Assembly: GCF_050920415.1 (NCBI RefSeq)
Contig: NZ_CP169309.1
Reading direction: 5' to 3' (one strand)
Origin: Escherichia coli
GTDB taxonomy: Bacteria > Pseudomonadota > Gammaproteobacteria > Enterobacterales > Enterobacteriaceae
DNA: 64,000 nucleotides
In this document: piece by piece, positions 30,721 to 49,274 of the stretch
How positions within the stretch are numbered: the first letter of the stretch is position 1
Layout: each line of letters opens with the position of its first letter
Made by a program: the position numbers and the translations under genes
Notes under the pieces: generated by a model
Database searches by the model: none
What the model saw: the letters and a program-made list of their open reading frames with translations, nothing else
Told to the model about the DNA's origin: nothing

Positions 30721-31389
30721 ATGATTCGCTTTGAACATGTCAGCAAGGCTTATCTCGGTGGGAGACAGGCGCTGCAGGGCGTTACGTTCCATATGCAGCC
30801 GGGTGAGATGGCGTTTCTGACCGGTCATTCCGGCGCAGGGAAAAGTACCCTCCTGAAGCTGATCTGTGGGATTGAGCGGCCCAGCGCCGGGAAAATCTGG
30901 TTTAGCGGCCATGACATCACGCGTCTGAAAAACCGTGAAGTTCCGTTTCTGCGCCGCCAGATTGGCATGATTTTCCAGGATCACCATCTACTGATGGACC
31001 GTACTGTCTACGATAACGTGGCGATCCCGCTGATTATCGCCGGTGCCAGCGGTGACGATATTCGTCGTCGTGTATCGGCGGCGCTGGATAAAGTCGGGCT
31101 ACTGGACAAAGCGAAGAACTTCCCTATTCAGCTTTCCGGCGGTGAACAACAGCGTGTTGGCATTGCCCGCGCGGTGGTGAACAAGCCCGCGGTACTGCTG
31201 GCGGATGAACCGACCGGTAACCTTGACGACGCGTTGTCAGAAGGAATTCTACGTCTGTTTGAAGAATTCAACCGCGTTGGGGTAACCGTATTGATGGCAA
31301 CGCACGACATCAACCTGATTTCGCGGCGTTCCTATCGCATGCTCACCCTGAGCGATGGTCACTTGCATGGAGGCGTGGGCCATGAATAA
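30721..31389 (+). CDS. ftsE: Cell-division ABC transporter ATP-binding protein FtsE
   Basis: 222-aa ORF with Walker [10 protein letters not shown] and signature LSGGEQQR. Confidence 0.95.
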
Positions 31390-32440
31390 GCGCGATGCAA
31401 TCAATCATATCCGGCAGTTTGGCGGGCGTCTGGATCGCTTCCGTAAATCGGTCGGCGGCTCTGGCGACGGCGGTCGTAATGCGCCGAAACGCGCGAAATC
31501 CTCGCCAAAACCGGTAAACCGCAAAACTAACGTTTTCAACGAACAGGTGCGCTATGCCTTCCACGGCGCATTGCAGGATCTGAAAAGCAAACCGTTCGCC
31601 ACGTTTTTAACGGTGATGGTTATTGCCATCTCTCTGACGCTGCCCAGCGTCTGTTATATGGTGTACAAAAACGTTAACCAGGCGGCGACGCAGTATTATC
31701 CGTCACCGCAAATCACCGTTTATCTGCAAAAAACGCTGGACGATGACGCCGCTGCGGGCGTGGTGGCACAGTTGCAGGCCGAGCAAGGTGTAGAGAAAGT
31801 AAACTATCTTTCTCGTGAAGACGCACTGGGCGAGTTCCGTAACTGGTCTGGTTTTGGTGGTGCGCTGGATATGCTGGAAGAAAACCCGCTTCCGGCAGTG
31901 GCGGTGGTAATCCCGAAACTCGATTTTCAGGGGACCGAGTCACTGAATACCTTGCGCGATCGTATCACCCAGATCAACGGCATTGACGAAGTGCGAATGG
32001 ATGACAGCTGGTTTGCCCGTCTGGCGGCGTTGACCGGGCTGGTCGGGCGCGTTTCGGCAATGATCGGCGTATTGATGGTGGCGGCAGTGTTCCTCGTCAT
32101 CGGTAACAGTGTGCGTCTGAGCATCTTTGCTCGCCGTGACTCCATTAACGTACAGAAACTGATTGGTGCGACAGATGGTTTCATCCTGCGCCCATTCCTG
32201 TACGGTGGCGCATTGCTGGGATTTTCTGGCGCATTGCTGTCATTAATTTTGTCGGAAATTCTGGTCCTGCGTTTGTCTTCGGCGGTTGCGGAAGTGGCAC
32301 AGGTTTTCGGAACGAGGTTTGATATCAATGGCTTATCTTTTGATGAATGCCTGCTATTGCTGCTGGTATGCTCGATGATTGGCTGGGTGGCAGCCTGGCT
32401 TGCCACGGTACAACATTTACGCCACTTTACGCCTGAATAA
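31382..32440 (+). CDS. ftsX: Cell-division ABC transporter permease-like protein FtsX (352 aa)
   Basis: ATG overlapping ftsE 3' end; [20 protein letters not shown]...; 4 TM segments. Confidence 0.9.
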
Positions 32441-32564
32441 TAAAAGCGTGTTATACTCTTTCCCTGCAATGGGTTCCGTAGCAGGGAAAGAGACCCCGTT
32501 GTCTCTTCCCGGTATTTCATCTCTATGTCACATTTTGTGCGTAATTTATTCACAGCGTTGCATT

Positions 32565-32591
32565 GAACTTGTGGATAAAATCACGGTCTGA
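32565..32591 (+). promoter_or_regulatory. Sigma-E dependent promoter (rpoH P3)
   Basis: GAACTT-N16-TCTGA, matching the sigma-E consensus, ~95 bp upstream of the rpoH start. Confidence 0.7.
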
Positions 32592-32684
32592 TAAAACAGT
32601 GAATGATAACCTCGTTGCTCTTAAGCTCTGGCACAGTTGTTGCTACCACTGAAGCGCCAGAAGATATCGATTGAGAGGATTTGA

Positions 32685-33539
32685 ATGACTGACAAAATGC
32701 AAAGTTTAGCTTTAGCCCCTGTTGGCAACCTGGATTCCTACATCCGGGCAGCTAACGCGTGGCCGATGTTGTCGGCTGACGAGGAGCGGGCGCTGGCTGA
32801 AAAGCTGCATTACCATGGCGATCTGGAAGCAGCAAAAACGCTGATCCTGTCTCACCTGCGGTTTGTTGTTCATATTGCTCGTAATTATGCGGGCTATGGC
32901 CTGCCACAGGCGGATTTGATTCAGGAAGGTAACATCGGCCTGATGAAAGCAGTGCGCCGTTTTAACCCGGAAGTGGGTGTGCGCCTGGTCTCCTTCGCCG
33001 TTCACTGGATCAAAGCAGAGATCCACGAATACGTTCTGCGCAACTGGCGTATCGTCAAAGTTGCGACCACCAAAGCGCAGCGCAAACTGTTCTTCAACCT
33101 GCGTAAAACCAAGCAGCGTCTGGGCTGGTTTAATCAGGATGAAGTCGAAATGGTGGCCCGTGAACTGGGCGTAACCAGCAAAGACGTACGTGAGATGGAA
33201 TCGCGTATGGCGGCACAGGACATGACCTTTGACCTGTCTTCCGACGACGATTCCGACAGCCAGCCGATGGCTCCGGTGCTCTATCTGCAGGATAAATCGT
33301 CCAACTTTGCCGACGGCATTGAAGATGATAACTGGGAAGAGCAGGCGGCAAACCGTCTGACCGACGCGATGCAGGGTCTGGATGAGCGTAGCCAGGACAT
33401 TATCCGCGCACGCTGGTTGGACGAAGACAACAAGTCCACGTTGCAGGAACTGGCTGACCGTTACGGTGTTTCCGCTGAGCGTGTGCGCCAGCTGGAAAAG
33501 AACGCGATGAAAAAACTTCGCGCTGCTATTGAAGCGTAA
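32685..33539 (+). CDS. rpoH: RNA polymerase sigma-32 heat-shock factor RpoH
   Basis: 284-aa [54 protein letters not shown]... Confidence 0.95.
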
Positions 33540-49062: not shown

Positions 49063-49152
49063 GCGATCAGGAAGACCCTCGCGGAGAACCTGAAAGCACG
49101 ACATTGCTCACATTGCTTCCAGTATTACTTAGCCAGCCGGGTGCTGGCTTTT
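49063..49152 (+). ncRNA. ryhB: Iron-responsive small RNA RyhB
   Basis: 90-nt sequence GCGATCAGGAAGACCCTCGCGGAGAACCTGAAAGCACGACATTGCTCACATTGCTTCCAGTATTACTTAGCCAGCCGGGTGCTGGCTTTT matches RyhB as recalled, with terminator hairpin and U-tail; lies between yhhY and yhhX as in K-12. Confidence 0.9.
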
Positions 49153-49274
49153 TTTTTGATCTTTCGTTTTCAATTTATCCACGGGAAGTGCTTGTGATCG
49201 TTATGCGCACTCCAGTAGGAACCACGTCCGCTTTGCGCTAAGGTGTAAATAATCACCTTAAAAAGGACGAAATC

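Follow-up and report, generated by a model that had tools for sequence, protein, structure and literature searches.

Identification of the promoter upstream of rpoH

The window analyzed here (the whole 64-kb stretch of Escherichia coli DNA) carries a short bipartite motif in the spacer between ftsX and rpoH. The question raised by this locus is whether the motif is a functional promoter of rpoH recognized by sigma-E or a sequence conserved, or present, for another reason. The site is almost certainly rpoH P3, the promoter of E. coli rpoH that depends on sigma-E (RpoE, sigma-24, ECF group 02). This reading is supported by the uniqueness of the motif, its identity with K-12, an architecture shared with degP and rpoE P2, and its conservation, while sigma-E dependence itself comes from the literature on K-12.

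The original prediction placed GAACTT-N16-TCTGA in the ftsX-rpoH spacer, and direct reading of the window finds it exactly there on the plus strand, in the context gcattGAACTTgtggataaaatcacggTCTGAtaaaacagtgaatg. The -35 element GAACTT occupies positions 32565 to 32570 and, with T32564, reads TGAACTT (6/7 versus GGAACTT). It is followed by the 16-nt spacer gtggataaaatcacgg (32571 to 32586), the first half of which lies within a DnaA box, and by the -10 element TCTGA (32587 to 32591), which reads GTCTGA with the preceding G32586. The upstream boundary is ftsX (31382 to 32440, plus strand, mapped from the K-12 annotation), whose open reading frame ends with a stop codon at 32438 to 32440. The rpoH coding sequence (sigma-32, 284 amino acids; “RNA polymerase sigma factor RpoH” in RefSeq K-12) is an open reading frame at 32685 to 33539 on the same strand and begins with ATG at 32685. 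The two genes therefore leave a spacer of 244 bp, with the motif on the rpoH strand.

Transcription from P3 is predicted to start at A32598, 87 nt before the rpoH ATG and 27 nt after the -35 element. This position was chosen because published sigma-E geometry calls for a discriminator of 5 or 6 nt and for a purine at +1, at a distance of 25 to 28 nt from the -35 element. The predicted discriminator TAAAAC and the predicted start together span 32592 to 32598 (plus strand), and the P3 transcript would carry an 87-nt 5' untranslated leader (32598 to 32684, plus strand) that is identical to the corresponding sequence of K-12. The 87-nt leader agrees with the mapped P3 start. A32598 is an A in 52 of 74 aligned sequences. 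The stretch lying upstream of the -35 element (32533 to 32562) is moderately A/T rich (19/30, 63%) and includes, in the allele of the window, GCG at 32555 to 32557.

The exact motif occurs once in the 64-kb window when both strands are searched, against a mean chance expectation of 0.01 (1 of 100 dinucleotide-preserving shuffles contained any match). Within the 244-bp spacer, it is also the sole match to AAC..N15-17..TC..A. The motif was assigned to P3 because it is the only sigma-E-like site in the K-12-identical spacer and because it corresponds to the P3 of Erickson et al. (1987) and Erickson and Gross (1989). The identity and location originally proposed are thus correct, the core being identical to that of K-12 and lying directly upstream of rpoH. 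The K-12 promoter has the same locus, the same flanking ftsX and rpoH genes, and the same core sequence, and it differs only by a 3-nt polymorphism at 32555 to 32557.

No paper was found in a full-text literature search with the promoter string as three overlapping 19- to 22-mers, RefSeq K-12 annotation (including NC_000913.3) contains no promoter features in the ftsX-rpoH spacer, and Rfam at gathering thresholds gave no match at or near the site. rpoH P3 is an ordinary textbook promoter, already known in full detail and characterized since the late 1980s. The site shows that a real alternative-sigma promoter is recognizable from sequence alone, and it adds no new biology.

Fit to the sigma-E promoter model

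In the model that Rhodius et al. give for sigma-E promoters, a GGAACTT -35 element is combined with a TCAAA-type -10 element, a discriminator of 5 or 6 nt, and a distance of 25 to 28 nt from -35 to +1 (PMC1312014). Spacers range from 15 to 19 nt, with 16 nt strongly preferred (PMC1312014). The -10 logo of sigma-E promoters is GGTCAAA (PMC1312014), and the C of the -10 element is invariant (PMC1851643). An A/T-rich, UP-like stretch ahead of the -35 element is a further feature of such promoters. The site has TGAACTT for GGAACTT, with the conserved AAC core present, a spacer of the preferred 16 nt, and CGGTCTGAT where the model has (T/C)GGTCAAAA. The predicted 6-nt discriminator (TAAAAC, to A32598) and the 27 nt from -35 to the predicted start would also fall within the ranges of the model. 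The GGTCTGA sequence at 32585 to 32591 scores 3/5 against the modern TCAAA consensus and includes the invariant C.

Comparison with two other K-12 promoters places the site in the same architectural class. The degP (htrA) promoter, GGAACTT-N16-TCTGA-AGAACA, has in common with rpoH P3 the GAACTT, the N16 spacing, and an identical TCTGA. The rpoE P2 promoter, GGAACTT-N16-TCTAA, shares GAACTT, N16, and TCTxA. The first base of the -35 element is T in rpoH P3, whereas it is G in both degP and rpoE P2. rpoH P3 further differs from these two in being one among several promoters of its gene rather than the main one. The double DnaA box inside its -35 element and spacer is a feature of rpoH P3, and the comparison with degP and rpoE P2 concerns the -35/-10 architecture.

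The match to the sigma-E -35 and -10 consensus that had been claimed for the site stands, with 6/7 positions at -35, a 16-nt spacer, and the same -10 element as degP. The strict consensus used for that claim was historically derived from rpoH P3 and degP, which makes the motif match partly circular, and 1.03 chance matches to the relaxed form GAACTT-N15-17-TCNNA are expected per 64 kb. The identification draws its stronger support from where the site lies and on which strand, immediately before rpoH in a short spacer, from the lack of any other such match in that spacer, and from conservation.

Conservation across species

A search with a degenerate DNA pattern encoding an 11-residue RpoH peptide yielded 76 loci of Enterobacteriaceae and Erwiniaceae, each from a different species. 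The genera sampled include Escherichia, Salmonella, Citrobacter, Enterobacter, Kluyvera, Cedecea, Kosakonia, Atlantibacter, Erwinia, Pantoea, and Mixta. Enough upstream sequence was available for 74 of the 76 loci, and the column alignment (n = 74) consists of 73 other species and the window. Of the 74 usable loci, 72 carry GAACTT-N16-TC..A upstream of rpoH, 113 to 150 nt before its approximate start, and the spacer length is 16 nt in all 72. The two exceptions are each one base off (AAACTT in one and GAGCTT...TCTAA in the other).

The -35 columns are close to invariant (G 73, A 74, A 73, C 74, T 74, and T 74 of 74). The preceding position, 32564, is T in 45 sequences and G in 29, the G completing the GGAACTT consensus. 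Counts for the -10 columns (32586 to 32591) are G 72, T 74, C 74, T 69, G 64, and A 73. Within the -10 element, essentially only the third and fourth positions vary (TCTGA, TCTTA, TCGAA, TCATA, and TCAGA), the pattern that would be expected if the constraint is recognition by sigma-E through GTC and the final A. For a mask with the shape of a sigma-E promoter (GAACTT plus G, T, C, .., A), conservation averages 0.993 per column, versus 0.74 for the spacer, and the mask ranks first for conservation among 217 placements in the spacer. Between the two elements, positions 32579 to 32585 vary, and positions 32571 to 32578 are conserved in 72 to 74 of the 74 sequences. This quantified conservation footprint is mildly new.

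Identity with K-12 and variation within E. coli

Of 5,426 complete E. coli genomes, 5,425 match a 381-nt stretch around the site, and in every case the match falls between ftsX and rpoH. Over these 381 nt, the window shows 100% identity to strain ChlosBP-23-1 and 99% to K-12 MG1655. From position 32558 to the rpoH ATG, a region covering the -35 element, spacer, -10 element, discriminator, and leader, it is identical to K-12 MG1655. The sole difference from K-12 across the aligned positions 32430 to 32700 is GCG in the window versus AGC in K-12 at 32555 to 32557. The site thus has the canonical form of the region preceding E. coli rpoH.

Both the -35 and -10 elements are intact in 5,421 of the 5,425 complete genomes. 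The exact 34-mer ATTGAACTTGTGGATAAAATCACGGTCTGATAAA is present in 4,942 E. coli genomes, and the same 34-mer with a single change in the spacer (G32585T) is present in 479. The most divergent isolate (NZ_OZ038590.1, locus L081) carries T32587C in the -10 element, giving GGCCTGA for GGTCTGA. All 74 aligned sequences (the window and 73 other species) have T at this position. The C of the isolate may have arisen naturally, as a P3-down mutation, or may be an error of sequencing.

The GCG at 32555 to 32557 removes an AAGCTT site found in K-12 and, at approximately 41 to 43 nt before the start predicted for P3, falls in the zone of UP elements. GCG is a minority allele, with 218 of 5,425 records identical over a 71-nt query, and AAC and AGCC alleles also exist. 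The population count of intact promoters, the minority allele upstream of the -35 element, and the single isolate with a substituted -10 element are likewise mildly new.

Overlapping DnaA boxes and alternative explanations

The sigma-E -35 element and the first half of the spacer are overlapped by a double DnaA box, TTATCCACA-ag-TTCAATGCA, at 32559 to 32578 of the minus strand, so that the -35 element falls both between and within the two boxes. DnaA boxes often come as such closely spaced pairs. It consists of a perfect DnaA 9-mer (TTATCCACA; TTWTNCACA) at 32570 to 32578 and a second box (TTCAATGCA) at 32559 to 32567, both on the minus strand. Positions 32558 to 32579 of the window are the exact reverse complement of tTTATCCACAagTTCAATGCAa, the entry for the rpoH DnaA ChIP-seq peak (PMC11317965, Table 1). 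DnaA is bound at the rpoH site in ChIP-seq (PMC11317965), and rpoH transcription is repressed by DnaA (PMC8203912). Across the alignment (74 sequences, from the window and 73 other species), the double DnaA box is as invariant as the sigma-E elements. The invariance of positions 32571 to 32578 is attributed to the DnaA box, since sigma-E does not require those spacer positions. The second DnaA box, and likewise sigma-70 promoter P4, which overlaps the site, could also account for part of the conservation of the -35 element.

The conserved block could accordingly be read as primarily a DnaA operator, a sigma-70 promoter (P4), or both, with the resemblance to a sigma-E promoter incidental. The boxes at 32559 to 32578, one of them perfect, their occupancy by DnaA in ChIP-seq, and an invariant spacer half that is not required by sigma-E all favor this alternative, but it does not account for the downstream element. 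G-T-C at 32586 to 32588 and A32591 are invariant, although they lie at least 8 nt beyond the box and 16 nt from GAACTT, and the candidate sigma-70 -10 element (GATAAA, 32590 to 32595) is less conserved than the GTC. Moreover, direct transcription and binding by the sigma-E holoenzyme are documented in the literature (PMC1851643, PMC3490749, and PMC5493296). A block serving DnaA or P4 only is therefore very improbable and was rejected, since the DnaA boxes do not extend to the invariant GTC..A, which is placed exactly 16 nt from GAACTT. For the same reason, the boxes do not compete with the identification of the site as a sigma-E promoter, and the DnaA and sigma-E functions coexist at the site.

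The odds that a short bipartite motif without promoter function was matched by chance are close to negligible, and this explanation is effectively refuted by conservation and position: although chance would give the relaxed motif about once per 64 kb, it would give the exact motif only 0.01 times, and the site has the right orientation, occupies a 244-bp spacer that immediately precedes a gene known to belong to the sigma-E regulon, keeps its elements in 5,421 of 5,425 E. coli genomes and, with spacing intact, in 72 of 74 cross-species loci, and has the top-ranked conservation pattern in the spacer.

With the site taken as rpoH P3, its colocation with DnaA boxes, conserved across two families, is a mildly new observation. 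It is conceivable, if somewhat doubtful, that the overlap itself is under selection and that DnaA occupancy forms a conserved, obligatory gate on the link from envelope stress to heat shock instead of being a curiosity of E. coli in vitro. If this is true, only the breadth and physiological weight of the DnaA coupling would be new, as repression and binding in E. coli are already published.

Sigma-E control of rpoH

Envelope stress, in the form of unfolded outer membrane proteins or extreme heat, leads to degradation of the anti-sigma factor RseA and thereby frees sigma-E. At the site described here, the sigma-E holoenzyme would use sigma region 4 to read the -35 element GAACTT and region 2 to read the -10 element GTCTGA, with the C of GTCTGA as the key base and the 16-nt spacing as the optimum. 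Transcription would start approximately 6 nt downstream of the -10 element, at the predicted A32598, and produce an rpoH mRNA with the 87-nt leader. The resulting increase in sigma-32 would switch on the cytoplasmic heat shock regulon when the envelope is damaged, and P3 would also raise sigma-32 when sigma-70 promoters fail at lethal temperature. DnaA bound to the overlapping boxes at 32559 to 32578 could occlude P3.

The behavior of P3 in K-12 is well documented. Sigma-E was discovered via rpoH P3, which is active at lethal temperature (PMC8103513), and P3 has been described as transcribed exclusively by sigma-E (PMC1851643). It is transcribed in vitro by the sigma-E holoenzyme and also by the Bordetella SigE holoenzyme (PMC3490749). 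An rpoHP3::lacZ fusion is the standard sigma-E reporter, and rpoH P3 is used as the in vitro normalizer (PMC1312014; PMC3326320). In genomic SELEX with the RpoE holoenzyme, a peak of 37.4 in the rpoH/ftsX spacer is among the strongest in the genome (PMC5493296). On the basis of this literature on K-12 rpoH P3, the proposal that the site links the envelope stress and heat shock regulons is borne out. rpoH P3 is the wiring point by which envelope damage or lethal heat leads to sigma-32 and, through it, to the regulon of cytoplasmic chaperones and proteases.

The same wiring is reported in other genera, for which the comparison made here is with the literature only. In Pseudomonas aeruginosa, AlgU acts on rpoH P3 (PMC13104619), and in Bordetella bronchiseptica, a SigE-type promoter is located upstream of the rpoH homologue fam (PMC3490749). 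The logic common to P. aeruginosa, B. bronchiseptica, and E. coli is that an envelope stress sigma factor of group ECF02 directly transcribes the gene for the heat shock sigma factor.

Other elements of the ftsX-rpoH spacer and the window

A highly conserved block, TGTCACATTTTGTGCGTAATTTATTCACA, is located just upstream of P3 at 32527 to 32555 (plus strand) and contains half sites resembling TGTGA/TCACA. This block is probably the region reported to bind CRP and CytR at rpoH.

At the end of the ftsX region and the start of the spacer, a TGnTATA(C/A)T sequence (32449 to 32457, plus strand) is conserved, in a block that is highly conserved across species. Judged by its sequence, it is probably the extended -10 element of a sigma-70 promoter, rpoH P1, which would start transcription near 32464 to 32465, approximately 220 nt before the ATG. 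A scan of positions 32300 to 32800 for sigma-70 promoters and terminators returned one weak match only (32671 to 32698) and no terminator. The same scan missed the known sigma-70 promoters of rpoH, as well as the element at 32449 to 32457, and is therefore uninformative on P1, P4, and P5.

A hairpin (CUCUUUCCCUGC...GCAGGGAAAGAG; 32456 to 32492, plus strand) has a predicted energy of -25.6 kcal/mol (z = -5.2 versus shuffles). In 63 distinct enterobacterial sequences, its arms are conserved and its loop is variable. Compensatory pairs are found, for example, at 32461:32487 (TA in 34 and CG in 26), 32463:32485 (CG in 49 and TA in 12), and 32459:32489 (TA in 37, AT in 9, and CG in 6). Since the stem starts within, or immediately behind, the -10 element of the probable P1, the full stem would be present only in read-through RNA from ftsYEX. 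No T-run follows the hairpin at 32456 to 32492, and it may act as a terminator or as a stabilizer of 3' ends. This covarying hairpin, elsewhere in the spacer than P3, is also mildly new.

The only Rfam match in the window is the gene for the small RNA RyhB at 49092 to 49156 (plus strand), which matches RF00057 over its full length (83.1 bits; E = 3.6e-14) and is an ordinary gene, expected at that location.
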